Source of the DNA: an uncultured Thermoplasmata archaeon
GTDB taxonomy: Archaea; Thermoplasmatota; Thermoplasmata; Halarchaeoplasmatales; Halarchaeoplasmataceae
Assembly (NCBI GenBank): GCA_964585175.1
Contig: CAZPCW010000002.1
Coordinates: forward strand, 5,535-69,534
Direction of reading: 5' to 3'
DNA: 64,000 nucleotides
The notes beneath the pieces are model-generated. The model was not told the DNA's origin, searched no databases, and worked only from the letters and a program-made list of their open reading frames with translations. Below, piece by piece: positions 6,411 through 43,730 of the stretch (its first letter is position 1; each line of letters opens with the position of its first letter). Both the position numbers and the translations under genes were made by a program.

Positions 6411-6441
6411 TCATTCCTACGGAATCTAATCTGCCAATTTT

Positions 6442-11898: not shown

Positions 11899-12020
11899 AA
11901 AACTAGAATCTCATTAACATGGTAGACAGGACAAATCCATTTATATCCGGTCATCTATAGCTTGATTTGATACAATAAAACCGCCGTTTCGGCGGAAAAA
12001 TAGACTTTGACGTGATATAG

Positions 12021-12560
12021 ATGCTGACCTTGGTCTTGGCAGATTGTGAGATAGAAGTTAGCCCCGATAAGATAGATAGCTATGATTTTAGACCGGACAT
12101 GGTCCACTATCCTCTTTTACTGACCCAAGATTCCGGTTTAGCTGAAGAGAGAGAGCTGAGAACTATAGTTCATACCAGAGACGATAAAATTTTTCAATTC
12201 GAAGCCGACGGCGAGATCCCAGATTCGTTAGAAAAGTTCAAGAAGTTGTTGTTGAATGTTGACCAGGGAAACGCTCCTCAAGGCATCCGTAAATTGGACA
12301 ATAGTCTTTTCGAGGTTTTAGACGAACAGTTCGGTGAAAAGATAGTAATGACTCCTAAAGGCAAAAGGGCCGATCCTACAGATATGTTTTCCCGAACGGA
12401 AGATTATATCGTCGTAGTCGGAGGGTTCAGTAGCGGTGACTTCAAATCGCCGGTATACCGCTGGAGCGATAAAAAAATTTCAGTCTCAGAGAGAAAGATG
12501 AAACCTTGGTCAGTGACCGCAGAAGTCCTAGTAGGCTACAGATACTGTTCACTCGAATAG
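12021..12560 (+). CDS. nep1: Ribosomal RNA small-subunit methyltransferase Nep1/Emg1 (SPOUT)
   Basis: 179 aa. Resemblance to archaeal Nep1 from memory: N-terminal LVLADCEIEV, VVVGGFSSGDF (vs IIGGFPYGKL) and C-terminal WSVTAEVLVGYRYCSL. Confidence 0.6.
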   Translation: MLTLVLADCEIEVSPDKIDSYDFRPDMVHYPLLLTQDSGLAEERELRTIVHTRDDKIFQFEADGEIPDSLEKFKKLLLNVDQGNAPQGIRKLDNSLFEVLDEQFGEKIVMTPKGKRADPTDMFSRTEDYIVVVGGFSSGDFKSPVYRWSDKKISVSERKMKPWSVTAEVLVGYRYCSLE

Positions 12561-13409
12561 CTTCGCCACATTACTGTCGAAAGGTACGTCCATGGAATCA
12601 GAAACGGGTCTGCACTTGCTTCTAGTCAAGAATGCTATAGGGGAGTAACTGGTCTCGGAAAAAGCTTCCCAGTTGGCCATGCCCTTCGCTATGATAAGAT
12701 CGGAATCCTCGAGCTTTTTTCTCAAATTATCAGAGATCAGATCGAAGTTTACACCGACAGCGTAGCCTCCCGTTGTTGTTAGTTCATCAGCTATTTTATC
12801 TATATCTAGTTCTAAAGCTTCTGACATAGTGGCGTCGGTCAGGATGGGTTCACCTTTAACGACCACCATCAAGTCGATATCATACTCTTTCAACTTTTCG
12901 AGCAGTATAGTATCGAAAACTATCTCTCCGGCGTTGTCAGTGAAGAAAACTATTTCATCTCCGTTTTCGAGAATATTTTCGATGCGGTCGGTGTCATCAT
13001 ACCCTAGACCTTCTTCTACGATAGACTCGAATTCGTCGAGTAGATATTCCGGAGAACCTATATCGTCCCTATAACCGAAATCCATAACGTTGCCGGCTAT
13101 AGCTACTAGAAAAGCCTCTTTCAGACCGCCATCCCTGACTATCTTTTCAGCTTTGGGAAGCAATGTTTCTGCGGTTTCGTTGCTCTCCTTCTTCATCTCA
13201 GAATAGGGATCGTCGGTGCCGAGTATATCATAGACCTCTCGGTGAACTTTTGTGGCGACTTCCGCTGAGACCGCACCGTCTTCAAAATGTTCCTCAAGTA
13301 TGGAAAGCGCTCGATCTATGACTTCTCTTTCTTTGTCCTCATCGACGAGTTTAGATTCGAATCGGCAACGCTTCAAAAGACAGGGAACGCACTCGGGCTG
13401 TATTTCCAA
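12549..13409 (-). CDS. DUF89/ARMT1-like damage-control phosphatase family protein
   Basis: 286 aa. The N-terminal CVPCLLKR motif, IAGNVMDFG, and the overall pattern fit Pfam DUF89. Confidence 0.6.
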   Translation of the reverse strand: MEIQPECVPCLLKRCRFESKLVDEDKEREVIDRALSILEEHFEDGAVSAEVATKVHREVYDILGTDDPYSEMKKESNETAETLLPKAEKIVRDGGLKEAFLVAIAGNVMDFGYRDDIGSPEYLLDEFESIVEEGLGYDDTDRIENILENGDEIVFFTDNAGEIVFDTILLEKLKEYDIDLMVVVKGEPILTDATMSEALELDIDKIADELTTTGGYAVGVNFDLISDNLRKKLEDSDLIIAKGMANWEAFSETSYSPIAFLTRSKCRPVSDSMDVPFDSNVAKLFE

Positions 13410-13736
13410 TTATAATTCCCCGCTGGCCAACTTTTCGTTAATCTCTTCCGAATTAAGATGACCTTCTACAGTGATGTCCACACTGTCTTCGTCAAGCCCA
13501 TCCATTCCCGCAAGACTCTTTTTTATCTTGACCGCGAGTTGGACTCCCATAGGACAGAAAGGACTGCTAGGAGTGAACGTAAGACTGACCTTATCTTCTC
13601 CTGCTTCTAAATCTGATACCAAACCCATAGAATAAACATCCGTACCTGTCTCGGGATCCATCACCGTTTTTAGCCTTTCCACGACTTCTTCTTTTTCTGG
13701 CATGGTTATGACCTCAATATATCCTTTAGTGTACAA
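13410..13736 (-). CDS. DUF59/MIP18-family Fe–S assembly protein (SufT-like)
   Basis: 108 aa. VVERLKTVMDPETGTDVYSMGLV...PFCPMG is the characteristic DUF59 signature with its conserved Cys. Confidence 0.7.
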   Translation of the reverse strand: MYTKGYIEVITMPEKEEVVERLKTVMDPETGTDVYSMGLVSDLEAGEDKVSLTFTPSSPFCPMGVQLAVKIKKSLAGMDGLDEDSVDITVEGHLNSEEINEKLASGEL

Positions 13737-13826: not shown

Positions 13827-14714
13827 ATGAGCGGTTCAACCGATGTTCAAAGTCAATTGGCAGAAAAGCGCTTCAAATTGACTAGAGTGGGAGTTACGGG
13901 TGTAAAAAAACCCATCGTGGTCAAGAGGCCCTGGGGAAAAGTAACGCTCAATGCAACTATAGATATATATGTGGACTTGCCGTCGGATCAGAAAGGTTCT
14001 CACATGTCTAGAAACGTTGAAGTGACTGGAGAAATCGTCGATAAGACGGTGAGAGAACCGGTAGAGGGTCTAGAGAACCTTGCATCTCACATGTGCGATA
14101 TTCTGCTGGAAAAGCATGAATACGCTTCTTATTCTGAAGTCGATATAAAGGGAGATTATTTTTTAGAAAAAAAGTCACCAAAGGGAAGAACCAGTCTAGA
14201 GAATTACCAGATAAGAGCTAAAGCTGAAGGCAAGAGAGACGATAAAACCAGGAAATACATCGGAGTAAAAGTAGTCGGACTCAACACTTGCCCGTGTGCT
14301 ATGGAAGGTGTTCGAGAGAAATTCAAAGAGAAATACGACTCGGTAAGCGACGAGTTGGATGAGATGCCAGTCATTACTCATAACCAGAGGAACGAATCCA
14401 CGGTTATGGTTGAGGTGCCGCAGGGAAAAGAAGTGGAAGTAAATGATCTGATCGGCCTAGTAGAAGATTCGCTCTCTTCACCGACCCACGAGATCCTAAA
14501 AAGAGAGGATGAAGCCGAGGTCGTGATGCAGGCGCACGAGAATCCAAAATTCGTAGAAGACGTAGTAAGAGAGATCCTATCCAAGATATTGGAGAGATAC
14601 GATGATTTCCCAGACTCCACTCACGTAGAAGTCAAAAGTGAGAGCGAAGAATCCATCCATAAGCACAACGCTCTAGCGGAGAGAGTGACGACCTTCGGAA
14701 AATTGAGAGAGTGA
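13827..14714 (+). CDS. mptA: GTP cyclohydrolase MptA (FolE2/type IV family)
   Basis: 295 aa. GVTGV, the GSHMSR motif, and NTCPCA are typical of FolE2/MptA. Confidence 0.8.
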   Translation: MSGSTDVQSQLAEKRFKLTRVGVTGVKKPIVVKRPWGKVTLNATIDIYVDLPSDQKGSHMSRNVEVTGEIVDKTVREPVEGLENLASHMCDILLEKHEYASYSEVDIKGDYFLEKKSPKGRTSLENYQIRAKAEGKRDDKTRKYIGVKVVGLNTCPCAMEGVREKFKEKYDSVSDELDEMPVITHNQRNESTVMVEVPQGKEVEVNDLIGLVEDSLSSPTHEILKREDEAEVVMQAHENPKFVEDVVREILSKILERYDDFPDSTHVEVKSESEESIHKHNALAERVTTFGKLRE

Positions 14715-24983: not shown

Positions 24984-25754
24984 ATGGCAGAAAAAATAAA
25001 ATGGGGAGAGATGAACCGATGGGAACTTGACCAGAGATCAGAAATGGTCGATACGGCGATCCTCCCGGTAGGAAGTCTCGAACAGCACGGACCGCATCTT
25101 CCACTTGATACGGACTCTTACGATGCGGGATATCTGGTAGAAAAAGCGGTGGAAGAACTCGACTCTGCAAAACCACCCATCCTGCCGACGATTCCTTACG
25201 GAGTGAGCGATCACCACATGTCCTTTCCGGGGACAGTCACGCTAAGCTCGGATACCGTTGAAGATATGGTGGTCGAGATAGGTAGATCCGTACTTCAGCA
25301 CGGTTTTTTCAAACTTTACATCTATAACGGCCACGGCGGTAACGACTCGGCGCTGAAAACAGCGGCGAGAAAATTGAAGAAAGAAACTGGCATGGCGGTT
25401 TTCGTCGATTCTTTCGAGAGTGTGTATCTAGAAAAAGAAAAAATCGTAGAAAGCGCTAACGACGTACATGCCGGAGAATTCGAGACGTCACTTGTACTCG
25501 CCAATAGAGAGGAAAAAGTGGACGAAAGGACGATACCCAAAAAAGAATATGATTTCCCCGACGAAAAGATGGAATTCGATCACGAACCTGAATTTTTCTA
25601 TTCCTGGCACACTCACGATCTAACTGAAACCGGTGTTATAGGTGATGCGTCGAAAGCTAGTAAAGAAAAGGGAGAAAAATTATGGGATGCTTCGATACAA
25701 AAAGTGAAGAATAGATTGGAGACCGTGATGGAAGTATCTCATCAATTCAAATAA
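24984..25754 (+). CDS. Creatininase-family amidohydrolase (ArfB/MptB-like)
   Basis: 256 aa. LPVGSLEQHGPHLPLDTD is the hallmark creatininase-fold metal-binding motif. Confidence 0.75.
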   Translation: MAEKIKWGEMNRWELDQRSEMVDTAILPVGSLEQHGPHLPLDTDSYDAGYLVEKAVEELDSAKPPILPTIPYGVSDHHMSFPGTVTLSSDTVEDMVVEIGRSVLQHGFFKLYIYNGHGGNDSALKTAARKLKKETGMAVFVDSFESVYLEKEKIVESANDVHAGEFETSLVLANREEKVDERTIPKKEYDFPDEKMEFDHEPEFFYSWHTHDLTETGVIGDASKASKEKGEKLWDASIQKVKNRLETVMEVSHQFK

Positions 25755-29373: not shown

Positions 29374-30343
29374 CCCCAGAAAAAGACTCGAGGAAAAAAT
29401 CTTCCAAAGTCATGAAATCTGGTCTCAGGTATCGAATTTGGATATTACTCTTTTCGGCTATTTTGAATATTTTCTCGGTTTTATCCACATCTCTTACTAC
29501 TGCAGTGAGTTTGTCTTTTTTTCCTCTTGTTTTTACGATGTCAAAATTTTTCTCTAATTCATTTTTGAATCTTTTCAGCTTGTCTTCAGAAGCTCTTGTT
29601 TCTATCTTATATCTTCCGTCCTCTGACCCCATTAGGTCATCGATTGGACCGCTCCTCACCTTTTTACCATCGTTTATTATTACCACGTTCTCCCCCACCT
29701 CTTCGACTTCGTGAAGGATATGAGAAGAGATGAGAACCGTTTTGTTTGAACTAGCGATCTCTTCTATCAGCTCGAGCATTTCATTTTTTCCGTCTGGGTC
29801 CATACCGTTCGTCGGTTCATCAAGGAGAATCAGATCGGGATCGTGGACGATCGCTTGTGCGAGCTTAACTCTCTGTTTCATCCCTGTAGAATAGGAGGAG
29901 ATCTTCCTATACCTTTCCTCGCCGAGACTTACAAAATCCAAAATCTTATGAGCTCTCTGTAGAGAATCATCTTCAGTAAGCCCCGAAAGCCGGCCCATAT
30001 AAGAAACCAGTTCGAATCCTTTCATATCATCAATAAGACATTCGGATTCGGGCATATAACCGATATTCTGATTGGTTTTCACCGATTTCAATTCGATCTC
30101 CTTATCCTCGAATACGATCTTTCCATTCTCTGGTTGGATTTGACCCAGAAGGGTCTTTATAAAGGTGGTTTTACCCGCCCCGTTGGGGCCGAGTAGACCG
30201 GTTATCCCCTCGGGTATTCTCGCAGAAAATGAATCAAGTGCGATAGTAGAGCCGTATCTCACGAGTAGATCCTGAGCGTGGACCTTCGTTTTTTTACTCC
30301 GATTTGAAGAATCTTCGTCATGCATTCTCGATCTTGTGATCAA
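29354..30343 (-). CDS. ABC transporter ATP-binding protein
   Basis: 329 aa. Walker A GPNGAGKTT, the signature YSTGMKQR-like region and Walker B ILLDEP are present. Confidence 0.88.
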   Translation of the reverse strand: MITRSRMHDEDSSNRSKKTKVHAQDLLVRYGSTIALDSFSARIPEGITGLLGPNGAGKTTFIKTLLGQIQPENGKIVFEDKEIELKSVKTNQNIGYMPESECLIDDMKGFELVSYMGRLSGLTEDDSLQRAHKILDFVSLGEERYRKISSYSTGMKQRVKLAQAIVHDPDLILLDEPTNGMDPDGKNEMLELIEEIASSNKTVLISSHILHEVEEVGENVVIINDGKKVRSGPIDDLMGSEDGRYKIETRASEDKLKRFKNELEKNFDIVKTRGKKDKLTAVVRDVDKTEKIFKIAEKSNIQIRYLRPDFMTLEDFFLESFSGGDESGT

Positions 30344-31946
30344 ATATCTGCCTCAAGTATTTCATCGGAACGCTTCCCGCATAGAGTATGATGTCGTGGA
30401 AGAATCTCTCGGTGAAATCGTCTCCCATCCTTTCTTTGACCTCTTCTTTCAACTCTTTGATCATCTTTTTCCCTAAGAGATAGCTGAGCTGATATGCAGG
30501 GTTTTGAGTGTATCTTCTAACTTCTTTTTCCGCGTCCTTCTCGTCCATACCGACGTTATCCACCATGAATTCCACGGCCTCGTCGAAGGACATCTTACCC
30601 GTACTGAGCTTTACATCGACTATTATCCGGGCGGCTCTCCAAACGATATCTTTCGACTGGATCAATCTGGCTTCCGGAGTGTCATCAAAACCGTGCTCTT
30701 TCATCATCTCCTCGCAGTAATGAGCCCATCCCTCTACAGTCTCAACGGCGTTTGAGAATATTCGGAACACGTCATCATTTTCTACTGAAGCCGAAGTCTG
30801 TAGATGATGTCCGGGATATCCTTCATGTACAGTAGTATTTCTCACATCCCAGTAGGAGTAATTATTCAATCTATCTTCGTTTTCAGGTGGGGTCACCATG
30901 TAGAGACCTTTTTTGATTTCGTCGAATTTGGCGGGAGGAAGATAAGCTGCGAAGGGTATGATATTTCTCATATATTCGGGTGTCTCCGTGACTTCTATCT
31001 CCTCTTTATCCGGGATAGTTGCCAGATCGTTCTCTAAGATGAACTCCTTGGCGTCTTCAAGCCCTTCTTCGTACCACTCCAAGGCGTCCTCGAAACTGTC
31101 AGGGACTTCGGATTCAACTTCATTTATAACTTCTTCTACCTCTTTTTCAGGGTCTATCTTTTCGGCGTATTTTTCCATGTCAGCCTTTGATTCTTTCAAC
31201 AATTTTTCTCCGATCTCTAGTACTTCTTCCCCTTCATAACCTATCTCTCTTTTATCGAGCAGTTCCTCGAATTTTTCTTCACCAATAGCGTAATCGTTAT
31301 CGGCGTTGACTTTTAGATCCTTCAACCATTTGACGTATTCGTCCAACGCTTCGTCAGCTTCGTCTATGGCATCGCTGATTTCGCTCAACTGGTCCTCGTC
31401 ATAACCTTCCTTTTTCGCCAGCATCTGCACGAGCTTGAAAAGCATCGGTAACTGTTCCGCGGATTCGATGGCCATATCGATCCACAATTCGACCGGATCA
31501 TCTATCCTCGATCTTTCATCCTCGATAATATCAGGTATTTCTTTTATCCTTGAAACAATATCATCTAATCTTTCTTCGAGAGGGGCGAACTCTCTTTTCA
31601 GGAGAGGGAAAATGGAGGAACCTATGATATTGGGTGCCTGTGGAGCTCTTTCCCAATGCTTTAGTCTTTCCAAGTTGAACAACCGGAGTTCAAATATATG
31701 CACACCTAATTTTTTTGCCAACCGGTTCTCTCTGCTCAGTTCCTCGTCGTCAAAAGCCTCTAATTCTTCCAACCAATCTTTCATCATCTGTATATCTTCA
31801 GTATACTTTTCTCTGGTAAAGTCAGGTAATTGATCATCATATTCGTGTTTGCCCAGATGAGTCGCCATTATAGGATTTCTCTCTAAAAATGTATCAAATA
31901 CCTCTTCCTCAAACTCTTCGAATTTTTCGTCAGCACGTTCTGTCAT
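30318..31946 (-). CDS. DUF885-family protein (putative metallopeptidase-like)
   Basis: 542 aa. The HEGYPGHHLQ motif is characteristic of DUF885. The protein is extremely acidic. Confidence 0.65.
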   Translation of the reverse strand: MTERADEKFEEFEEEVFDTFLERNPIMATHLGKHEYDDQLPDFTREKYTEDIQMMKDWLEELEAFDDEELSRENRLAKKLGVHIFELRLFNLERLKHWERAPQAPNIIGSSIFPLLKREFAPLEERLDDIVSRIKEIPDIIEDERSRIDDPVELWIDMAIESAEQLPMLFKLVQMLAKKEGYDEDQLSEISDAIDEADEALDEYVKWLKDLKVNADNDYAIGEEKFEELLDKREIGYEGEEVLEIGEKLLKESKADMEKYAEKIDPEKEVEEVINEVESEVPDSFEDALEWYEEGLEDAKEFILENDLATIPDKEEIEVTETPEYMRNIIPFAAYLPPAKFDEIKKGLYMVTPPENEDRLNNYSYWDVRNTTVHEGYPGHHLQTSASVENDDVFRIFSNAVETVEGWAHYCEEMMKEHGFDDTPEARLIQSKDIVWRAARIIVDVKLSTGKMSFDEAVEFMVDNVGMDEKDAEKEVRRYTQNPAYQLSYLLGKKMIKELKEEVKERMGDDFTERFFHDIILYAGSVPMKYLRQIFDHKIENA

Positions 31947-32133
31947 ATTTGCCCGTCCTTTGCATCTTGGCGAAAAAACCTACTGATATTTAATATCTGC
32001 TCTTTCAGCCTGAATAAATGATCTTTAAAGGTCGGAAATCGGAGTCTAGTGAAGAACAAAAAGATTTCACTATTCCCCATAAAGGTTATAACGGGTTTAT
32101 TCCATTCCTTTTGGTTGAAGGAAGTGAATAATC

Positions 32134-32370
32134 ATGTCAAATATTAAAGATGTCGACGTTCATGGAGAAACTTGTCCAGTACCTTTAGTTGAGACCAGAA
32201 AGGCGATACGGAAAGCCTCACCGGGCGAGATAATAGAGGTGTCCGGCGATCATCCCGAGTCAAAAGAAGAAATTCCCATGGCTGTCGATGAGCTTGGATT
32301 GGAACTCCTAGATATGAAAGAGGAGGGGAAAAAATGGAAGATAAGGATAAAAATACCGGAGGAGGATTGA
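32134..32370 (+). CDS. tusA: TusA-like sulfurtransferase
   Basis: 78 aa. The GETCPVP (CPxP) active-site motif appears near the N-terminus at the typical position. Confidence 0.8.
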   Translation: MSNIKDVDVHGETCPVPLVETRKAIRKASPGEIIEVSGDHPESKEEIPMAVDELGLELLDMKEEGKKWKIRIKIPEED

Positions 32371-32371
32371 T

Positions 32372-32797
32372 TTGTCTGAACAAGAAAAGGCCACCTTGAT
32401 CATCCACAGCGGTGAATTCGACAAGATATACAGTGCCTTGATACTCGGAACCGGAGCGCTTTCGATGGGAATGGAAGTATCGATGTACTTCACTTTCTGG
32501 GGGTTGGAGAGGCTGAAAAAGGACAGTCTAGATAAAGGACCGATGTCCAGGATGAATTATTTCGGCATGGGTAAATGGATGATGAAGAGAAAATTGGAAG
32601 AGTCGAACGTTCGGGAGCTCGACGACTTGCTTGAAGATTTCAACGAGTTGGGCGGTAAAATTTTAGCCTGTGATATGACCATGGATATAATGGGGATAGA
32701 CAAAGAAGATTTAAGAGATGAAGTCATAACCGATTACTGTGCAGTCGGTACGTATATTAAGGAAGCTAAAGAATCAGATGTTACGCTCTTCATATAG
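32372..32797 (+). CDS. DsrE/DsrF-like family protein
   Basis: 141 aa. N-terminal TLIIHSG, the conserved Cys in ILACDMTM and the C-terminal ...TLFI fit the DsrE/YchN fold family. It is adjacent to tusA. Confidence 0.6.
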   Translation: MSEQEKATLIIHSGEFDKIYSALILGTGALSMGMEVSMYFTFWGLERLKKDSLDKGPMSRMNYFGMGKWMMKRKLEESNVRELDDLLEDFNELGGKILACDMTMDIMGIDKEDLRDEVITDYCAVGTYIKEAKESDVTLFI

Positions 32798-33988
32798 GTG
32801 ATAAAGATGCAGGATGAAATAATATATATGGATAACTCGGCCAGCTCAGAACTGGACGAAGAAGTATTCGAGGCGATGAAACCTTACATGTTGGATAATT
32901 ATGCGGTCGCGACTTCAGATTTCGCATACAGCATGGGTGTAGAGGCGAAAGAAGCGCTAAACGCCGCGAGGGAGACTATCGCTAACGAGTTGAATGCATC
33001 AGAAGAAGAGTTCATATTCACTTCTTGTGCGACGGAATCCAGCAATCTAGCGCTTAAAGGTGTGACTGAAGAACTTTCTGAAGAGGGAGATCATATAATA
33101 ATCTCAGATATCGAGGATTTTCCCGTGCTAAAAACGGCTCAGAAACTGGAAAAAAACGGCTTCGATGTTACCTATTTAGACGTGGACGAAAAAGGCTTTG
33201 TAGACCTAGAGCAGTTGAAAAACGCGATCGATGAAGACACCATTCTAGTTTCTATACAGCACGGAAACCAGGAGATAGGGACTCTTCAGGACATAGAGAA
33301 GATAGCCGAGATATGCGATGAAAACGATGTCGTTTATCACACCGACGCGACACATACATTCGGTAGAGTTCCGATAGATGTGAGCGAGGTCCCGGTAGAC
33401 CTTATCACCGTTTCGGCCCATACGATACACGGTCCGAGAGGTATCGGCGGTCTTTATATCAGGGAAGGCACACCTATCGAAAAACAGATGGAAGGTGGTT
33501 TTCAGGAAAACAACATGAGAGCCGGGGTGGAAAATATACCCGGTGCGGTCGGCTTCGCTAAAGCCGTAGAACTGATCGACGAGGAAGAAAATAAGAGATT
33601 GGAAAAGCTGAGAGACAAGTTGATCGAAGGTATGAAGGAAGAGATCTCTGATGTAATCCTCAACGGACCTGAAGATAAAAGAACGCCTCAAAACGCTAAC
33701 CTGACTTTTCACTATGTCGAGGGCGAATCTATCACATTACATCTAGACATGAGAGGTATCGCGGTCAGTACCGGCTCGGCGTGTTTCAGCAAGTCCCTAG
33801 AAGCGAGCCATGTTATATTGGGTATAGGAGGCGATCACGAGAGAGCTCACGGCTCGATAAGATTCACTTTAGGAAGGTTCAATGATGAAGATCAAGTTGA
33901 AGAAGTGGTCGAGGCCACTTCGGATATCATACAAAATCTGAGAGATATAAGCCCGTTGGGCGAAGAAAAAGATGAAGAGGAGGAATGA
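32798..33988 (+). CDS. iscS: IscS/NifS-like class V aminotransferase lacking the PLP-binding lysine (Cys-loop retained)
   Basis: 396 aa. ATESSNLALKG, DATHTFG and STGSACFS (persulfide Cys loop) are present. The canonical S-x-H-K PLP-lysine motif reads TVSAHTIHGPRG (K→T). The GTG start is as given in the track; an alternative ATG lies at 32807. Confidence 0.8.
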   Translation: MIKMQDEIIYMDNSASSELDEEVFEAMKPYMLDNYAVATSDFAYSMGVEAKEALNAARETIANELNASEEEFIFTSCATESSNLALKGVTEELSEEGDHIIISDIEDFPVLKTAQKLEKNGFDVTYLDVDEKGFVDLEQLKNAIDEDTILVSIQHGNQEIGTLQDIEKIAEICDENDVVYHTDATHTFGRVPIDVSEVPVDLITVSAHTIHGPRGIGGLYIREGTPIEKQMEGGFQENNMRAGVENIPGAVGFAKAVELIDEEENKRLEKLRDKLIEGMKEEISDVILNGPEDKRTPQNANLTFHYVEGESITLHLDMRGIAVSTGSACFSKSLEASHVILGIGGDHERAHGSIRFTLGRFNDEDQVEEVVEATSDIIQNLRDISPLGEEKDEEEE

Positions 33989-34629
33989 TTATGGATAATG
34001 CGCCGTATACTGAAAAGGTTATCGAATACTTTCAAAATCCCAAGAACGTTGGAACGATAGAGGATCCGGACGGTTACGCTAAAGAAGGTAGCCCGGCCTG
34101 TGGAGACATGGTGGAACTGTTCTTGAGAGTAGATGAAGATACCCAAGAGATCAAAGATGTTAAGTTCAAATCCTACGGATGCGCTTCGAATATAGCGACC
34201 GGTTCAATAATAACCGAGATGGCGAAAGGTAGTACTATAGAAGAGGCTAAAGAGATCACTTGGCAGGAAGCGGCCGATGAACTCGGCGGTTTACCGGACC
34301 TAAAGACACACTGTTCCGTTTTAGCCGTAGACGCCCTCAGGGAAGCTATCAGGAATTTCGAGGAGAGGCACGGAATCGGAGAAGAGCAGAAGGAAACCAC
34401 TGCTGAAGTGGTGAAGGAACGGTTAAAACATGTGATGAATCCTATGACCGGCGTTGATGTGATAGAAACTGATCTGATACACGATATCGAAGTCGAGGAC
34501 GGAAAGATATCGATCGAAGTCGATCTGGAAGAGGATCATCAATTCGCTTCCGCCGTGAAAGAGGACATAAAGGAAAAATTGGAGCCCAGATGGGATGTCG
34601 AAGAAGTAATCGTTCACTTCAACGAATAG
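33985..34629 (+). CDS. iscU: IscU scaffold fused to C-terminal DUF59/MIP18-like domain
   Basis: 214 aa. The IscU domain carries the three conserved Cys (PACGD, YGCASN, THCSV). The C-terminal ~80 aa (VVKERLKHVMNPMTGVDVIETDL...) parallel the standalone DUF59 protein at 13410–13736. Confidence 0.8.
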   Translation: MIMDNAPYTEKVIEYFQNPKNVGTIEDPDGYAKEGSPACGDMVELFLRVDEDTQEIKDVKFKSYGCASNIATGSIITEMAKGSTIEEAKEITWQEAADELGGLPDLKTHCSVLAVDALREAIRNFEERHGIGEEQKETTAEVVKERLKHVMNPMTGVDVIETDLIHDIEVEDGKISIEVDLEEDHQFASAVKEDIKEKLEPRWDVEEVIVHFNE

Positions 34630-34646
34630 TTTTTAGAGGTCTTATA

Positions 34647-35360
34647 ATGGAGACCAACAGGTTGAAAAGGATCTTCAGGAAATACGCCAACGACAAGCTT
34701 CCGGAGGAAGCGGTTCTAGAAAAGTGTAAAGATGCAGAGCCCATGGAGATGTGGCACGCCAGGTTGTCTCTGATGATGGACGGAAACATCACTGAATCAC
34801 AAGCTAAACCCCTGGCGGATATAATAAATCGACTTACTAGAGGACGAACTAACATGTTGAAAGACCTTCCAACAAAGCATCCTCTAAGGATTTTTTTGAT
34901 GGAGCACAGGCAGATGGAAAAACTGTTTAGGATGTTGGAAAACCTGGAGATAAACGAATACGAAGAGATATCCTCAGAAGTGGAAGAACAGCTGAAAGAT
35001 ATAACAGAGAAAATGATGGAGATAGAAAAACACGAGACGAGAGAGGAAAAAAATCTGCTGCCGCGACTCGTCGAACTGAGTGAGAACAAAAAAGGCGTGG
35101 CCGGGATGGTAAAGCTGATAAAAATACGCCATTCACAGCTGATGAGGGATATAGTGAAATTAAGAAACCTCTCGTTAGAGGAGAAAGAAAATAGTGAAAT
35201 GATAGTGAAAAATAGGGACGAGCTTCTCTATTCGATGAGAGACCACAATTTCAAAGAGAACAGGATACTCTATCCTTTGGCTCTAGAAATCATAGAGGAC
35301 TGGGACGAAATAAAAGAAGAGAATGAGCAAATAGGATACATCAACTCTGAGATGGTGTGA
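34647..35360 (+). CDS. DUF438 + hemerythrin-like (HHE cation-binding) domain protein, paralog 1
   Basis: 237 aa from the ATG at 34647. The HPLRIFLMEH...EKHETREEKNLLPRL pattern fits the hemerythrin HHE domain. The C-terminal ENRILYPLALEIIEDW is shared with paralog 2. Confidence 0.55.
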   Translation: METNRLKRIFRKYANDKLPEEAVLEKCKDAEPMEMWHARLSLMMDGNITESQAKPLADIINRLTRGRTNMLKDLPTKHPLRIFLMEHRQMEKLFRMLENLEINEYEEISSEVEEQLKDITEKMMEIEKHETREEKNLLPRLVELSENKKGVAGMVKLIKIRHSQLMRDIVKLRNLSLEEKENSEMIVKNRDELLYSMRDHNFKENRILYPLALEIIEDWDEIKEENEQIGYINSEMV

Positions 35361-35367
35361 TGATTAT

Positions 35368-35586
35368 ATGACTTCGATCAGCATAGATCAAAACGGATGC
35401 ATAAGTTGTGGCATGTGCAGCACCCTCTGCCCGGAGGTGTTCGTGATGGACGAAAATGGTGTTGCACAGGTGAAAGTCGAATATCGAGGAAATAATCCTT
35501 CCGAGGGGGATCCCCCTGCAGATATAGGATGTGTAAAAGACGCGGTAGAAAGCTGTCCGGTAGATGTAATCACAGCGGAAGATTAG
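35368..35586 (+). CDS. Small single-cluster [4Fe-4S]/[3Fe-4S] ferredoxin
   Basis: 72 aa. It has the CISCGMCSTLCP ... CP cysteine pattern. Confidence 0.75.
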   Translation: MTSISIDQNGCISCGMCSTLCPEVFVMDENGVAQVKVEYRGNNPSEGDPPADIGCVKDAVESCPVDVITAED

Positions 35587-35601
35587 AAGGACGCGATATG
35601 C

Positions 35602-36297
35602 ATGGATGTGGAAAAAGTATCCGAGATACTGAAGGATATCTATTTGGAAAAAATCAGCAAAGAAGAAGGAATAGAAAAGCTGAAAAACGCTACCCCCATC
35701 GATCTGACTTCAGCCGAACTTCGTCTGATAAGCGAAGGTATGGATGGGTTGGAGATAGAAGAGATAAGCCAGATATACGACGAGATAATAGACGACCAGA
35801 CCAGTAAATTACTGAAAACGCTTGGTGAGAACCATCCTATTAAGAGGATGATCCTAGAGCACAAAGAGATCAGCGATTTTTTGGAAAATCTACTTGGTTT
35901 TTCGAGCAAAATAAGAACCAAAAAATACGAAGAAATGATGGATCAGTTCGACAACTTCCGAGATAATCTAAAACTTATACAATTCCATGAAAAGCGAGAG
36001 GAGGAAATCTTTTTCCCGGAGCTCGCGGATAAAGGTTTCGAAAAAAGGATAGAGATACTTGAAAAAGAACATCGCTATATCGATGAATATATAGACCAGA
36101 TGGATGAATTCTTGCAGAATTTAGAAAAAAACGAATTGGAAGCTCTAAAATCTATCGAGGAAATAATCTATACATTGAATTTTCACATGTTTATAGAAAA
36201 CAATCTTCTTTATCCTCTAGCGTTAGAAGAGATAGATGAGTGGGGAGATTTGAAAAAGAAAAGTGAAGATATGGGGTATATCGATTTGGAGTCCTAG
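35602..36297 (+). CDS. DUF438 + hemerythrin-like (HHE) domain protein, paralog 2
   Basis: 231 aa. NHPIKRMILEHKE...FHEKREEEIFFPEL and C-terminal ENNLLYPLALEEIDEW are present. It is clearly paralogous to 34647–35360. Confidence 0.55.
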   Translation: MDVEKVSEILKDIYLEKISKEEGIEKLKNATPIDLTSAELRLISEGMDGLEIEEISQIYDEIIDDQTSKLLKTLGENHPIKRMILEHKEISDFLENLLGFSSKIRTKKYEEMMDQFDNFRDNLKLIQFHEKREEEIFFPELADKGFEKRIEILEKEHRYIDEYIDQMDEFLQNLEKNELEALKSIEEIIYTLNFHMFIENNLLYPLALEEIDEWGDLKKKSEDMGYIDLES

Positions 36298-36305
36298 TTC
36301 ACATT

Positions 36306-37301
36306 TTAATAGCCTCTTTCAACGTCCACGATGTTGACTTCTTCTCCCTCAGATAGAGATTCTAAGATTTCAGCTAGATTTTTTATCCTGTACTTGCCCC
36401 TTTCCTTGATCTGAGTGGCACGGTGAGGGCTAAAAATCACGTTTTCGAATTCGTCTAGACGATAATTTGAAGGAAAAGTTTCAGTTCTAGCTTCTTTATC
36501 AGGAGGATAATTCCACCAAACGTCTATCCCTGCACCTTCGACTTCTCCGGATTTTAACGCCTCGTAAAGAGCTTCCTCGTCGATGACCGGGCCTCGGCCC
36601 ACGTTGACTATATGCACGCCTTCCTTCATCTGCTCGAACTCTTCGAAACTTAGATACCCTCTAGTTTCATCTGTCTCCGGCAGCGTGGAAACTATGAAGT
36701 CCGCTTCACTCAACTGTTCGGGTAGATGTTCGTTAGTTTTTAGTTCGTTGACCAGTTCACTTTTACCAGGAGTTCGCTTCACAGCGTTAACTTCCATGTT
36801 GAATGCGTTTCCCATCCTCGCGATCTCTTTTCCTATCTCACCAAAACCGAGGATGAGCAGCGTTTTATCTCTCAATCCTTTGCCCGTTCCGTCTTCGTAT
36901 CTAGGGGTCCAGTCGCCTTCTTTCATCTTGTCGTGGATCGGTACGAGTTTCTTAGCGCTAGCAAGAAGTAGAGAGAAAGCGTGTTCCGCCACCATCCAGT
37001 AGTTGAAATGAGAATTGATCACTTTGATATCTGGAAAATCTCGCAGTTTTTCTTTGTCGGAATGCGGTAGTCCCACAAAGGGAACGATATAGTATTTCAG
37101 ATTCTCAGCGTTCTCCAGGAACTCTCTCGATATCCGAGAACCTATGACCGCATCGAAACGGTCCGCTTCATCGATCATCTCTTCTTCTTGGTCTGCAGTG
37201 ACCTCCACAACTTCGATATCTGGAGAAACGAGGTCCGATAACGTTTCCTCTTCCTTCTCGTCAAAGAGGCTCTTGAATGGATCTAGATGAAGGACTTTCA
37301 T
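36306..37301 (-). CDS. D-isomer-specific 2-hydroxyacid dehydrogenase (NAD-binding)
   Basis: 331 aa. The Rossmann GFGEIGKEIA motif and a catalytic R/E/H pattern (SPHRA) are present. Confidence 0.8.
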   Translation of the reverse strand: MKVLHLDPFKSLFDEKEEETLSDLVSPDIEVVEVTADQEEEMIDEADRFDAVIGSRISREFLENAENLKYYIVPFVGLPHSDKEKLRDFPDIKVINSHFNYWMVAEHAFSLLLASAKKLVPIHDKMKEGDWTPRYEDGTGKGLRDKTLLILGFGEIGKEIARMGNAFNMEVNAVKRTPGKSELVNELKTNEHLPEQLSEADFIVSTLPETDETRGYLSFEEFEQMKEGVHIVNVGRGPVIDEEALYEALKSGEVEGAGIDVWWNYPPDKEARTETFPSNYRLDEFENVIFSPHRATQIKERGKYRIKNLAEILESLSEGEEVNIVDVERGY

Positions 37302-39080: not shown

Positions 39081-39165
39081 GCGGGAGTAGCCGAGCTAGG
39101 CCAAAGGCGCTAGACTCAAGATCTAGTCCTACAGGGGTCCGAGGGTTCAAATCCCTCCTCCCGCA
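39081..39165 (+). tRNA. tRNA-Leu (anticodon CAA)
   Basis: The cloverleaf was folded by hand. The acceptor GCGGGAG pairs with CTCCCGC, plus discriminator A. The anticodon stem is CTAGA/TCTAG with loop CTCAAGA (CAA). The long variable arm is typical of Leu. The T-arm is GAGGG-TTCAAAT-CCCTC. No CCA is encoded. Confidence 0.8.
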
Positions 39166-39213
39166 CTCTGTTCTCCATTTCACACCTAACTGTTTTATAC
39201 CACAATCTTCACC

Positions 39214-40438: not shown

Positions 40439-41641
40439 TCAGTCATCCATCGCCTCTTCTAGTTTTTCACTCAGTATTGGTATGACTTCGTGCAGATCAC
40501 CGACTATTCCGAAGTCCGCAACATCGAATATATCGGCGTCCGGATCGTCGTTTATAGCTATGATGTAATCGGAATCCTTGATACCCACCTTGTGCTGTAT
40601 CGCTCCGGAAACACCAGACACTATATACAGCTTTGGCGAAATGGTCTTTCCGCTCTGACCTACCTGCTTCGATTTCGGCAACACGTCCTCTTCGACTATC
40701 GGTCTACTGCATCCAACCGTACCGTCCAGTTTCTCAGCTAGTTCTTCCAAGATCTCGAAATCTTCTCTGTTCGTCCCGACGCCTCGTCCACCGCAGACTA
40801 CGGTGTCAGCTTCTTCGACCGGTATCTCTCCGGTCTCTTCAGGTTCCATCACTTCTATCACTTCTGTTCTTATAGCTTCTTCGCCGACCTCTACCTCTTC
40901 CTCGATAAGTTCGTATTCGCTGTCGTGATCCGGCTCGAGAGGACTCATGACGTGCGGCCTTACAGTAGCCATTTGTGGTCTAGAATTAGTACAAACGATG
41001 TCGGCCATGACGTTACCTCCAAAAGCGGGCCTGATCTGCATCAGCACTTCTCTGCCTTCTACTTCCTCGATACCTAGGTCTGTACAGTCCGCCGTAAGAC
41101 CGAGTCCCATCCTGCCCGCAACAGAAGGAGCTAGATCTCTTCCTAAGTGGGTCGCTCCGTAGAGGAATATGTTAGGCTTGTATTCGGAGATCAAAGTCGT
41201 TATAGCGGTAGTATAAGCCTCAGTAGAATAATCCTCGAACACTTCGTCTTCGACGACATAGACTTTCTCTGCACCATAAGCGCTCAGTTCTTCGGGAAGT
41301 CCTTCAACATCTTCACCTATCAAGACCGCGCAGAGTTCTTCCCCCAACTCGTCGGCCAATTCTCTTCCCTTTCCGAGAAGCTGGGGGCCTGTAGGCTTCA
41401 ATTCATTGCCCTGCGACTCAGCGTACACCCAAACGCCTTCGTACTCTGAGAAGTCCTTGTCTTGACTCATATCTATGACCGGCTCGATTGCGTCGACCGG
41501 ACAGGCGGAAACGCACGCACCACAAGATATGCAGTCGCCCACTAGTTTGGCTACACCGTCTTCCATGGCCAGAACGTCGACCGGACACACTTTCAAGCAC
41601 TTTTCACAGCCTGTACAAGTTTTCTCGTCTATCTCTATCAT
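40439..41641 (-). CDS. etfA: Electron transfer flavoprotein alpha subunit with N-terminal 2×[4Fe-4S] ferredoxin domain (FixB-type)
   Basis: 400 aa. The N-terminus has CTGCEKCLKVCP and CISCGACVSACP. The C-terminus has the ETF-alpha FAD-binding pattern (IVSGVSGAIQH). Confidence 0.85.
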   Translation of the reverse strand: MIEIDEKTCTGCEKCLKVCPVDVLAMEDGVAKLVGDCISCGACVSACPVDAIEPVIDMSQDKDFSEYEGVWVYAESQGNELKPTGPQLLGKGRELADELGEELCAVLIGEDVEGLPEELSAYGAEKVYVVEDEVFEDYSTEAYTTAITTLISEYKPNIFLYGATHLGRDLAPSVAGRMGLGLTADCTDLGIEEVEGREVLMQIRPAFGGNVMADIVCTNSRPQMATVRPHVMSPLEPDHDSEYELIEEEVEVGEEAIRTEVIEVMEPEETGEIPVEEADTVVCGGRGVGTNREDFEILEELAEKLDGTVGCSRPIVEEDVLPKSKQVGQSGKTISPKLYIVSGVSGAIQHKVGIKDSDYIIAINDDPDADIFDVADFGIVGDLHEVIPILSEKLEEAMDD

Positions 41642-42438
41642 AGTATCCCCTCCTCGTCTAAGAAATCGATCAATTGTTGAACCGACTTCTCGGGTTCTTC
41701 TTCGACTTTTATGCCTTCACCTTTCGGAGGCGGAGAGTACGTGTCTATTACTACGCTTTCGGAACCGTCGAGTCCGTACTCGTCGTTCTCACCGCCAATA
41801 TCTTCAATGGCCCATTCTTCCGTGGGCTTCTTTTTCGCTTTCATTATTTCTCTTACATTCGGTATCTTAGGTTCGAATCCCGGTTTCGGCATGCAGGCGA
41901 TCAGGACAGGCAGTTCCGACCTGATCTTCACATGTCCTTCGTCGGTTTCTTTCTTACATATGATATATTCTTCATCGGTATCTAAATCATTGACTTCAGA
42001 AACATAAGTCAATTGGGGAAGTCCCTGATGTGCAGCGACCTCTGGACCGACCTGAGCAGTATTACCGTCAGACGCTTCCTGACCAGCAAAGATCAAATCA
42101 ACGTCATCTATCTGCTTCAAGGCTCTGCCGAGAGTGACCGCAGTAGCCCACGTGTCCGCTCCGGCGAACTCGCTGTCGGTGAGCAAAATAGCTCTATCCG
42201 CACCGATAGCTTTACACTTGTTCAAAGCTTCCTCCGCCTGTGGAGGTCCCATCGTCATCGCTATTATCTCGACCTCTTCGTCGACTTCTTCCTTAAGGTC
42301 AACGGCTAAATTCAAAGCGAACTCGTCGAAAGAATTGAGGGTTGAAGGGACCCCGTCTCTGATGATGGTCCCGGTCTCCTCGTCCACTTCGACTTCGGTA
42401 GTATCCGGAACCTGCTTGACCAAAACCACGAATTTCAC
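41638..42438 (-). CDS. etfB: Electron transfer flavoprotein beta subunit (FixA-type)
   Basis: 266 aa. The N-terminus MKFVVLVKQVPDT is typical of ETF-beta. It overlaps etfA by 4 nt. Confidence 0.85.
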   Translation of the reverse strand: MKFVVLVKQVPDTTEVEVDEETGTIIRDGVPSTLNSFDEFALNLAVDLKEEVDEEVEIIAMTMGPPQAEEALNKCKAIGADRAILLTDSEFAGADTWATAVTLGRALKQIDDVDLIFAGQEASDGNTAQVGPEVAAHQGLPQLTYVSEVNDLDTDEEYIICKKETDEGHVKIRSELPVLIACMPKPGFEPKIPNVREIMKAKKKPTEEWAIEDIGGENDEYGLDGSESVVIDTYSPPPKGEGIKVEEEPEKSVQQLIDFLDEEGIL

Positions 42439-42446
42439 GGGATCAC

Positions 42447-43730
42447 CTATTTGTAAGGTATGTAGTCGTCACCTAGAGTCTCTCTAGCTATGACTATCTT
42501 TTGTATGTTAGCTCCGCCCTCTGCTCCTACACAGTAGGACATCACACCTCTCCAGGCGGTCTCGAATATGTATTCGGAGCTGTAACCGGCAGCGCCCAAC
42601 CAGTGCATCGCATCGTCAGCGGTATCTTTAGCTAGATGAGGGATCTTGTACTTGATCATAGAGATCCATTTTGCGATCTCTGTAGGACTGTATGTCTGAG
42701 CTTTGCCGCTCTTTTCCTTCCAGCCTTCTTCGTCATATCGGGTGTCCTGCATCTCTGCTACTCTATTTATCATGAGATCACTCGCTTCCATCTCGGTGTA
42801 TCTTTCCACGAAGGGGAACTGTATGCCTTCGTACTTAGCAAGAGGATTACCGAAGGTTTCTCTTTCCTTGATATAATCCGCGGCTTCTTCTAGGATACGC
42901 CTGGTGACTCCCACGGCACTAGCTCCTATCATGATTCTTGCGTTATCGAAGCCTTCCATCGTGTAGTAGAAACCTTTTCCCTGCTCTCCGAGCATGTATT
43001 CTTCTGGTATCCTAACATCGTTCATCTTGAATCCAGAAGTCGAAAGCGATCCTCTTCCTGCGTCATCGTAAGGTTCCTGAGGTTCCAAGCCATCCGAGTC
43101 GATAGGAACGAAGAACGCGGTCATGTTTTTGTGGGGAGCTCCTTCTACCTGAGGGCCGGTTCTGACGTTTACCCAATATCCCCCGCCCATTCTTTTACAC
43201 TCTTCGACTCCGCTGATGAAAGTTTTCTCGCCGTTGAGCACCCACTCGTCGCCGTCTTTCTCCGCTGTAGATTCGAAACCGGCGACGTCCGAACCGCCTT
43301 TGGGTTCGGTGGTAGCGATCCCAACGAATTTATCTCCTTGAATAGCGGGTTTTACGAATTTTTCTCTCACTTCTTCATTACAGTATCTGTTGATCGTGAA
43401 TCCCCATCCCGTCTCTACCGCCATAAAACCCGCCGCGGTAGCGATACTGGGATCAATATAACCTATCTGGTCCGCTATGGCGATTTGATCTTTCCAAGAA
43501 AGCCCCATACCGCCGTGTTCTTCAGGAACGGTGCCCATGATGACTCCTAGGTCCGCTAACCCTTCCACTATATCTTCAGGGAAGGGGTGTCCTTCTCTAT
43601 TTATTTTAATCACGCGCTCTAGAGGAAATTCTCTTTCCGCCCAATCTGTAATACTCTCTTTGAATAACTTCTGCTCCTCGGTAAGTCCTCTATCATCTGA
43701 AAGATCTGTCCTAGCCATTTTTTCCACCAT
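42447..43730 (-). CDS. Acyl-CoA dehydrogenase
   Basis: 427 aa. The ACAD three-domain pattern and a C-terminal catalytic region are present. It is adjacent to etfBA. Confidence 0.8.
   Translation of the reverse strand: MVEKMARTDLSDDRGLTEEQKLFKESITDWAEREFPLERVIKINREGHPFPEDIVEGLADLGVIMGTVPEEHGGMGLSWKDQIAIADQIGYIDPSIATAAGFMAVETGWGFTINRYCNEEVREKFVKPAIQGDKFVGIATTEPKGGSDVAGFESTAEKDGDEWVLNGEKTFISGVEECKRMGGGYWVNVRTGPQVEGAPHKNMTAFFVPIDSDGLEPQEPYDDAGRGSLSTSGFKMNDVRIPEEYMLGEQGKGFYYTMEGFDNARIMIGASAVGVTRRILEEAADYIKERETFGNPLAKYEGIQFPFVERYTEMEASDLMINRVAEMQDTRYDEEGWKEKSGKAQTYSPTEIAKWISMIKYKIPHLAKDTADDAMHWLGAAGYSSEYIFETAWRGVMSYCVGAEGGANIQKIVIARETLGDDYIPYK

Follow-up and report, generated by a model that had tools for sequence, protein, structure and literature searches.

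A lysine-less IscS encoded with TusA, DsrE2-like and IscU::DUF59 proteins in anaerobic Archaea and Bacteria: a candidate persulfide-fed module for iron–sulfur cluster assembly

A 64,000-nucleotide stretch of DNA from an uncultured Thermoplasmata archaeon (assembly GCA_964585175.1, contig CAZPCW010000002.1, positions 5,535 to 69,534 of the forward strand; hereafter the window) contains seven plus-strand open reading frames (ORFs) that fill positions 32134–36297, as seen in the ORF list with translations. They encode a TusA-type sulfur carrier, a DsrE2B-like sulfur carrier, an IscS/NifS-like protein, an IscU scaffold with a C-terminal DUF59 domain, and a small ferredoxin flanked by two hemerythrin-like proteins. 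The first four genes form a core whose order and orientation recur across both prokaryotic domains, and its IscS has threonine in place of the lysine that binds pyridoxal 5'-phosphate (PLP). We put at roughly 55% the probability that this core is a minimal variant of the ISC/MIS type of iron–sulfur (Fe–S) assembly system, one that would work without PLP and be fed by a persulfide relay and not by sulfur from its own cysteine chemistry. Gene content, residue changes and the pattern of conservation were observed directly; what is new is that the core is so widespread in the two domains, that its four genes keep a fixed layout, and that loss of the lysine goes together with TusA/DsrE genes in two clades.

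The IscS-like protein (32798..33988, plus strand), of the MisS type, matches Pfam Aminotran_5 (240 bits, 4e-71) and aligns over its full length with solved IscS structures (residues 5-391, E about 1e-98). An earlier note on this DNA had reported that its PLP lysine is missing, and this is confirmed: the site reads SAHTIHGPRG, with Thr209, where a canonical solved desulfurase has SAHKMYGPKG. Residue numbers and roles in Escherichia coli IscS, as established for its structure, were mapped onto the window protein through canonical homologues. On this mapping the Schiff-base residue Lys206 is replaced by Thr209, the ring-stacking His104 by Asp107, and the PLP contacts Gln183 and Thr243 by His186 and Val244, the last being Val, Leu or Ile across the family. 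The PLP or substrate contacts Thr76, Asn155, Asp180, Ser203 and His205 are retained, as are the substrate-binding Arg354 (Arg355 in the window protein) and the catalytic-loop Cys328, which is Cys329 in the motif STGSACFS and invariant in the family. With Lys206 and the contacts His104, Gln183 and Thr243 all replaced, a Thr-type IscS is predicted to form no internal aldimine and so should be unable to desulfurate cysteine.

The altered site is a stable property of a well-delimited family. Across 81 members, residues T209, H186, H208, D183, C329, R355 and N157 show no variation and Asp107 almost none; this invariance of the replacement residues indicates that the Thr type is a strongly selected state and not a product of decay. 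The protein is 60-98% identical across archaea and bacteria. Among its best 120 database matches (65–92% identity), 109 have Thr and one has Pro at this position, ten gave no match to the motif, and none has Lys where the motif was readable. When sequences were clustered at 50% identity, the Thr family collapsed to essentially one representative (65% identity), with the next relatives at 47–50%. The window protein scores below every NCBIfam equivalog cut-off (451 bits vs 530.75 for NifS). One possibility is that the former PLP pocket (Asp107, Asp183, His186, His208 and His211) has been re-used for a metal such as iron.

Conservation of the neighbourhood was assessed by scanning one genome per species, which gave 532 candidate relatives, of which 80 loci were retrieved and analysed through their ORFs and BLAST. 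The order TusA–DsrE2-like–IscS(Thr)–IscU::DUF59, all on the same strand, was found in 69 of these 80 loci, which argues against chance adjacency; the 11 incomplete loci comprise five cut by contig ends and six real exceptions. The IscU gene adjoins the IscS-like gene in at least 73 of the 80. Hosts of the core include Thermoplasmata, Hadarchaeota, Methanosarcinales, Heimdallarchaeota, Halanaerobiales, Dehalococcoidia and other Chloroflexota, Atribacteria, Syntrophaceae and Thermotogae; the hosts are strict anaerobes of sulfidic or hypersaline sediments, and the core proteins are 55–95% identical across the genomes examined. Methanosarcinales alone account for about 30 loci with the core order, at 59-68% identity to the window proteins. 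The earlier note had treated all seven genes as one module; this holds for the first four, which are conserved across both domains, whereas the hemerythrin/ferredoxin tail is an add-on seen in Thermoplasmata.

Mean IscS identity is 68% between archaeal and bacterial members vs 72% within archaea, the other three proteins behave similarly, and archaeal and bacterial clades interleave in a rough tree. This near-equality of cross-domain and within-archaea identity, together with the interleaved clades, suggests cross-domain transfer of the complete block. When the flanking ORFs of the 80 loci were all clustered, neither a fifth conserved partner nor a rhodanese emerged, and no active desulfurase is conserved around the module in these neighbourhoods. 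Some neighbours recur within single lineages: in Methanosarcina these are proteins of the HIT, DUF5518 and PQ-loop families; in Halanaerobiales, tusA is immediately preceded by a radical SAM gene in six loci (as in L021, 6392-7327, plus strand), and a 593-residue Pyr_redox_2–DoxD fusion flanks the module in six loci (as in L053, 9196-10977, minus strand). In two Anaerolineae loci (L013 and L063), and in no others, the Thr-type IscS is unaccompanied: TusA, DsrE and IscU::DUF59 are all missing from the surrounding 5-8 kb. In one Dehalococcoidales genome (L072), the Thr-type module is followed some 2 kb further downstream by a canonical IscS (SAHK)–IscU pair encoded on the other strand (11218-12832, minus strand), so that both systems occur together.

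Lysine loss extends beyond the Thr family. Of the 150 nearest representatives at 50% identity, 21 lack the lysine, which is replaced by T, L, D, S, M, Q, P, A or R, and these form at least three groups in a rough neighbour-joining tree. Outside the Thr family, TusA was adjacent in 5 of 7 Lys-less representatives vs 0 of 3 Lys-containing controls. The five comprise two Leu types, arranged as IscS–IscU::DUF59–TusA (P0133) and IscS–IscU–TusA (P0146), an Asp type arranged as Fdx–TusA–IscS (P0135), and two with Thr, arranged as IscS–IscU–TusA (P0149) and IscS–TusA (P0183).

A metagenome scan seeded with the Asp-type group, which resembles the IscS of Archaeoglobus fulgidus, recovered 83 IscS-like proteins whose neighbours within 2.5 kb were recorded. 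No TusA or DsrE-type gene lay within that distance of any of the 71 canonical Lys-type proteins (signature H-D-Q-H-K), whereas TusA lay near 7–8 and a DsrE-type gene near 8–9 of the 12 Asp-type (H-D-A-N-D) proteins. Gene order in the Asp-type loci is TusA–DsrE–IscS–IscU, most misses fall at contig ends, and Pfam confirms the TusA and DsrE/DrsE_2 calls. One-sided Fisher tests on the counts at E ≤ 1e-4 (7 and 8) gave p=1.9e-7 for TusA and 1.3e-8 for DsrE, values that ignore shared ancestry. TusA and DsrE-type genes thus also precede a separately substituted Lys→Asp clade, in the same order as in the Thr-type core, which is new here.

The window IscS was considered as a member of the Asp-type clade and set apart from it, since its signature is D-D-H-H-T and the Asp types (P0135, P0210, P0241 and others) group separately in the neighbour-joining tree. 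A second Aminotran_5 gene upstream of a Leu-type IscS in L085 was considered as a partner desulfurase and rejected as a SerC-type aminotransferase on its sequence motif, the sole basis for that call. Several unusual arrangements were seen among the loci. In L109 (5169-6503) an Asp-type IscU is fused to a pyridine-nucleotide disulfide oxidoreductase (NifU_N + Pyr_redox_2, 444 amino acids), a partial version of which occurs in L106; the reductase part may act as a built-in electron donor. In L112 (1252-2787) the IscU gene is split by an intein with a LAGLIDADG homing endonuclease (split NifU_N, Intein_splicing, LAGLIDADG_3). In L088 a creatininase-family gene (6212-7045) lies between a Leu-type Lys-less IscS and IscU; the window also has a creatininase-family gene (24984-25754), about 7 kb from the island, and the likeness is probably a coincidence.

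Both putative carriers keep a single conserved cysteine. The 78-residue TusA (32134..32370, plus strand) matches Pfam TusA with 76 bits against a gathering score of 28.6 (1.9e-21), and its Cys14, in a CPVP motif of the CPxP type, is invariant in 75 orthologues. It is not an equivalog of E. coli TusA, YedF or YeeD by NCBIfam (33-47 bits vs cut-offs of 78-147). The 141-residue DsrE2-like protein (32372..32797, plus strand) matches Pfam DrsE_2 (PF13686) with 131 bits vs 25 (6e-38); its Cys100, conserved in 99% of 74 orthologues, aligns with the cysteine of its best solved relatives, 2QS7 (1.8e-21) and 3PNX, the former being DsrE2B of Saccharolobus solfataricus (PMC11094781). It falls below the NCBIfam SulfCarrDsrE2 model of the sulfur-oxidiser type (71.5 bits vs 210), which it matches with its C-terminal half alone.

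The scaffold appears equipped for cluster building. NifU_N (146 bits, 8e-43) and FeS_assembly_P/DUF59 (43.3 bits vs 23.5, 4e-11) lie in one ORF (33985..34629, plus strand; 214 amino acids as the longest ORF, 212 from the likely start at 33991), confirming the proposed IscU–DUF59 fusion. It has the cluster residues C39, D41, C66, H109 and C110, of which the Cys and His ligands show at least 97% conservation. The DUF59 domain itself has Ala at the canonical Cys of the '…CP…' motif and carries a conserved DHQF motif instead. The reference for this Ala/Cys alignment was a stand-alone DUF59/FeS_assembly_P protein of 108 amino acids with the canonical FCP motif, encoded elsewhere in the window (13410-13736, minus strand); since this gene is present in the same window, the genome holds both a Cys-type DUF59 and a Cys-less one on IscU. 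It adjoins a gene for an ARMT1-like damage-control phosphatase (12549-13409, minus strand) and is divergent from a FolE2 GTP cyclohydrolase gene (13827-14714). An accessory role in Fe–S protein maturation has been demonstrated for SufT of the DUF59 family (PMC4982691).

From these features we infer a possible direction of sulfur flow and possible roles for the three tail genes. TusA, through Cys14, and the DsrE2B-like protein, through Cys100, would collect sulfane sulfur from polysulfide, thiosulfate, oxidised sulfide or another desulfurase, and one or both would pass a persulfide to Cys329 of IscS, which in turn would deliver sulfur to the IscU domain, the predicted site of cluster building; the fused DUF59 domain may help to hand the cluster to client proteins. 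In the window, the tail ferredoxin probably supplies electrons that reduce persulfide sulfur to sulfide, and the two hemerythrin-like proteins are probably iron donors, iron buffers or a protection against oxygen. Candidate electron-donor partners recur, namely the window ferredoxin and those of other loci, the ferredoxin beside the Asp-type IscS of P0135, and the IscU–reductase fusion of L109; they fit persulfide better than free sulfide, because sulfur entering at the S0 level must be reduced. The earlier proposal of assembly driven by persulfide or sulfide, and not by cysteine and PLP, has thus gained comparative support, in that TusA/DsrE genes accompany two Lys-less clades and none of the 71 Lys-type proteins, while its mechanism is still deduced and not observed.

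The main rival, which we consider rather unlikely, is a scaffold-only role of the kind modelled for A. fulgidus: the Lys-less IscS would steady IscU and lend one cysteine ligand, sulfur would come from free sulfide, and TusA and the DsrE2-like protein would regulate IscS–IscU or buffer sulfane sulfur. Sulfide is indeed the source suggested in the published A. fulgidus model (PMC8918507), the hosts are anaerobes of sulfidic or hypersaline sediments as noted above, minimal SUF/SMS systems can use sulfide, and, according to PMC11302665, TusA and IscU of E. coli compete for IscS and so influence its activity. This account leaves unexplained why, in two clades, Lys-less IscS has TusA and DsrE genes beside it in an unchanging order when none of the 71 Lys-type proteins has them, and why each carrier keeps a conserved cysteine; with free sulfide, the recurring ferredoxin and reductase partners would also be needless. 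The conservation data refute chance adjacency or a decaying, non-functional IscS paralogue, an idea that we find hardly credible even though Deere et al. raised a non-functional IscS1 in Methanosarcina acetivorans (PMC7585200): the protein is 60-98% identical across two domains with invariant replacement residues, 69 of 80 genomes have the four genes in one and the same order, and IscS1 was detected in the M. acetivorans proteome (PMC7585200).

Roles outside general cluster assembly are less likely for the core, since nothing else is conserved around it and hemerythrins are rare. A sulfur hub for tRNA thiolation, molybdenum cofactor or thiamine synthesis, in which IscU::DUF59 would supply the clusters of the enzymes concerned, would agree with the best-known role of TusA, in tRNA 2-thiouridine and molybdenum cofactor synthesis via IscS (PMC2854127), and the weak NCBIfam matches of the window TusA are to YedF and TusA. 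We find it improbable: no tRNA-thiolation, MoaD/ThiS or molybdenum cofactor gene is conserved beside the module in the 80 loci, and the only partner that is invariant, IscU, has a full set of cluster ligands and is joined to an Fe–S maturation domain. Just as doubtful is a stress or repair system that mends oxidatively or nitrosatively damaged clusters or detoxifies polysulfide, with the hemerythrins as sensors of oxygen or nitric oxide or as RIC/YtfE-like iron donors. The weak similarity of the second hemerythrin to YtfE/RIC, the conserved di-iron ligand pattern and the proposal that DsrE4-type proteins detoxify reactive sulfur (PMC11094781) speak for it, whereas hemerythrins follow the core in 5 of 80 loci, all Thermoplasmata, and so cannot define its function, and their RIC scores are far below the cut-offs, with the Pyrococcus furiosus protein PF0695, not YtfE, as best structural match.

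Several observations weigh against the persulfide-relay reading. It rests for all members on sequence and conservation, and the direction of flow is assumed; in E. coli sulfur runs from IscS to TusA. The window IscS retains the phosphate-binding residues T79, S206 and H208, and A. fulgidus IscS binds pyridoxamine 5'-phosphate (PMP) without the lysine (PMC8918507), so that by analogy the Thr-type protein might hold a cofactor non-covalently. When expressed alone, M. acetivorans IscS1 formed inclusion bodies (PMC7585200). TusA and/or DsrE are missing despite room on the contig in L005, L006, L013, L024, L026 and L063, and two Lys-less representatives have no TusA nearby, the Leu type P0137 and the Asp type P0210, the latter with a lysine-bearing SufS-like gene after IscU. 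The Fisher tests draw on about 2-4 independent lineages, not dozens. Some hosts have a canonical IscS–IscU in addition to the module (L072; isc2 and isc3 of M. acetivorans), so in them the module is not the sole Fe–S route.

The three remaining genes of the island form a lineage-specific add-on found in some halophilic Thermoplasmata. Hemerythrin-like genes follow IscU in the five loci mentioned above and ferredoxin genes follow the module in seven, from Thermoplasmata and Heimdallarchaeota; the full seven-gene order recurs in L001, at 92% identity. Word-based homologue searches for the two hemerythrins returned 3 and 8 matches, and the sequence of the second is identical in the metagenome-assembled genomes GCA_905333815.1 and GCA_905333305.1. 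The first, Hr1 (34647..35360, plus strand; 237 amino acids from 34647, the longest ORF starting at 34590), and the second, Hr2 (35602..36297, plus strand; 231 amino acids), are predicted HHE proteins of the di-iron type that match Pfam Hemerythrin with 39.6 bits (8.8e-10) and 61.4 bits (1.6e-16), respectively, vs a gathering score of 25.3. They had been described as paralogous DUF438/hemerythrin proteins around a ferredoxin. Paralogy stands, with 28% identity and His/Glu ligand columns common to both; the DUF438 label is weak, as PF04282 reaches 18.6 bits vs a gathering score of 25 in Hr2 and does not match Hr1, although one distant homologue (P0128) carries it. The profile searches thus supported every family assignment in the earlier note (TusA, DsrE, Aminotran_5, NifU_N, DUF59 and Hemerythrin) except DUF438.

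In an alignment the putative di-iron ligands of Hr2 (H78, E86, H87, H129, E133, H157, H195 and E199) are invariant, and its AlphaFold2 model (predicted local distance difference test score, 88.6) is all-helical, with a small N-terminal helical part that is weakly DUF438-like followed by four long helices. Its best match in both sequence and fold is 3CAX, the uncharacterised PF0695; 3CAX and 2P0N head the fold matches. A RIC/YtfE identity was considered and rejected: Hr2 resembles YtfE/RIC weakly (NCBIfam 1.2e-4, PDB profile 2e-4), scores 21.6 vs 254 and 19.6 vs 204.7 bits against the RIC models, Hr1 matches none of them, the fold search leads to PF0695, and Pfam finds no ScdA_N domain in the window hemerythrins. 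A part as iron donor, iron buffer or oxygen guard is plausible; sensing of O2, NO or iron, as suggested in the earlier note, would be a candidate role of proteins that fall short of the curated RIC/YtfE thresholds. The 72-residue ferredoxin between them (35368..35586, plus strand) matches Fer4_15 (59 bits, 7e-16) and Fer4_13 (1.5e-13), and its six cysteines at 11, 14, 17, 21, 55 and 63 are typical of small single-cluster ferredoxins, here of the [4Fe-4S] type. Public gene calls shorten it to 46 amino acids, which removes the CxxCxxC motif and any Pfam match, whereas the 72-residue ORF matches Fer4_15 over its full length; the short call in deposited metagenome-assembled genomes (also L081, 5845-5985) is likely an annotation error.

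The ORF list and Pfam bear out the described layout of seven co-directional, tightly packed genes. The 1–4 nucleotide overlaps reported between them do not hold, as they arise from longest-ORF starts; the starts supported by Shine-Dalgarno sequences leave gaps of 1, 9, 2, 17, 7 and 15 nucleotides. A GGTGAT Shine-Dalgarno sequence backs 32807 (Met4 of the 396-residue ORF) as the likely start of IscS, which leaves 393 amino acids; public gene calls use this start too, and place that of IscU at 33991 and that of Hr1 at 34647. Upstream of tusA, a putative archaeal promoter and ribosome-binding region (32080..32133, plus strand) was recognised by eye, with a presumptive A/T-rich TATA-like element, TAAAGGTTATAA (32080-32091, plus strand), and the candidate element GGAAGTGA (32120-32127, plus strand). 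A sigma-70 promoter scan showed no enrichment (7 vs 8.3 in shuffles) and terminator-like sites a weak excess (7 vs 3.8 ± 2.2), in both cases under a bacterial model that is not applicable to an archaeon. The island is flanked on the left by a divergent DUF885 gene (30318–31946, minus strand) and on the right by a convergent 2-hydroxyacid dehydrogenase gene (36306–37301, minus strand), and the sole RNA gene that Rfam identifies near it is tRNA-Leu(CAA) (39081-39166, plus strand). The window belongs to a metagenome-assembled genome, and its closest relatives are Thermoplasmata of hypersaline settings: the IscS homologues nearest to it carry the name Natronoplasma (order Halarchaeoplasmatales), and further ones stem from metagenome-assembled genomes of Great Salt Lake. 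Farther along the window, genes for an acyl-CoA dehydrogenase, EtfB and an EtfA with an N-terminal two-[4Fe-4S] ferredoxin domain stand in a row (40439-43730, minus strand) and look like a ferredoxin-fused electron-transfer flavoprotein system, and an ORF of at least 1899 amino acids (58301-64000, minus strand) runs past the window end.

Where strict anaerobes obtain the sulfur of their Fe–S clusters, especially when IscS is catalytically dead, is an open question, stated as such for A. fulgidus (PMC8918507). The locus and its several hundred candidate relatives (80 of them examined) suggest a concrete, testable answer in the form of a TusA/DsrE persulfide relay tied to Lys-less IscS, and the idea can be tested directly in M. 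acetivorans, which is genetically tractable and for which isc2 and suf mutants exist. They also offer a case of a PLP enzyme fold that very strong selection has preserved although its cofactor chemistry was lost, and of the apparent transfer of a whole cofactor-assembly module between domains. A broader reading, to which we give less than even odds, is that TusA → DsrE-type → Lys-less IscS → IscU constitutes a distinct Fe–S route free of PLP and cysteine, general to all 'inactive' IscS including that of A. fulgidus; this route would have passed en bloc among anaerobic archaea and bacteria, and with it cells could make clusters from sulfane sulfur or sulfide taken from their surroundings.

The closest described counterpart is isc1 of M. 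acetivorans (MA0806–MA0811), comprising IscU1 (MA0807), IscS1 (MA0808), a 'DrsE superfamily' protein (MA0809) and a 'SirA-like' protein (MA0810) (Deere et al. 2020, PMC7585200). IscS1 has the STGSACFS loop and lacks PLP-binding residues including the lysine, IscU1 is an enlarged protein of 24 kDa, and the locus was drawn in a supplementary figure with its neighbours called 'genes of unknown function' (PMC7585200); the insolubility of IscS1 kept it from further study. IscSU1–3 receive a passing mention in one later paper of this field, and MIS is described in a review of 2026 as the system that has been studied least. The earlier statement that the combination is not a described operon therefore needs qualification, as it was drawn once as isc1; beyond the supplementary legend of Deere et al., no paper describing or interpreting TusA–DsrE–IscS(no Lys)–IscU, and hence no relay reading of the core, was found in the openly accessible literature (subscription journals lay outside the search). 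Core and gene order are orthologous in isc1, and Methanosarcina loci are 65-68% (IscS) and 59-63% (IscU::DUF59) identical to the window; isc1 differs in having a HIT protein and small membrane proteins as neighbours in place of the hemerythrin/ferredoxin tail, and its published account contains no sulfur-relay idea and does not report the wide distribution.

The IscS–IscU complex of A. fulgidus (PDB 4HVK, 4EB5 and 4R5F) likewise has a Lys-less type I IscS that keeps its loop cysteine; this protein is the second-best solved relative of the window IscS (E 4e-98). It is inactive, yet its loop cysteine ligates a [2Fe-2S] cluster on IscU (PMC8918507). Its Asp-type relatives have TusA and DsrE upstream in the same order, as seen in metagenome loci and not in the A. 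fulgidus genome itself. It differs in its signature (H-D-A-N-D vs D-D-H-H-T), its separate tree group, its retained ring-stacking His, its bound PMP, and an IscU that has no DUF59 domain. The hemerythrin-like proteins share a four-helix bundle and His/Glu di-iron ligands with RIC/YtfE (5FNN) and PF0695 (3CAX), but fall far below the RIC cut-offs, and PF0695 has an extra C-terminal region. MIS (MisS/MisU; Garcia et al., summarised in PMC13066941) shares an IscS-like and IscU-like core without HscAB, IscA or IscR and an occurrence in anaerobes, whereas MisS is described as a cysteine desulfurase and the window module has no PLP lysine, two fixed carriers and a DUF59-fused scaffold. The Rhd–TusA–DsrE2 and TusA–DsrE3 relays (Allochromatium vinosum, Metallosphaera cuprina, sHdr; PMC11094781) also place TusA beside one-cysteine carriers of the DsrE family, but feed dissimilatory oxidation through DsrC or sHdr, whereas the window carriers adjoin IscS/IscU, have no conserved rhodanese with them and occur in hosts that are not sulfur oxidisers. 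In E. coli, IscS binds both TusA and IscU (PDB 3LVJ, 3LVL; PMC2854127), so docking between members of these three families is known; there a PLP-active IscS generates the persulfide and TusA receives it, whereas in the window module the proposed flow would be reversed.

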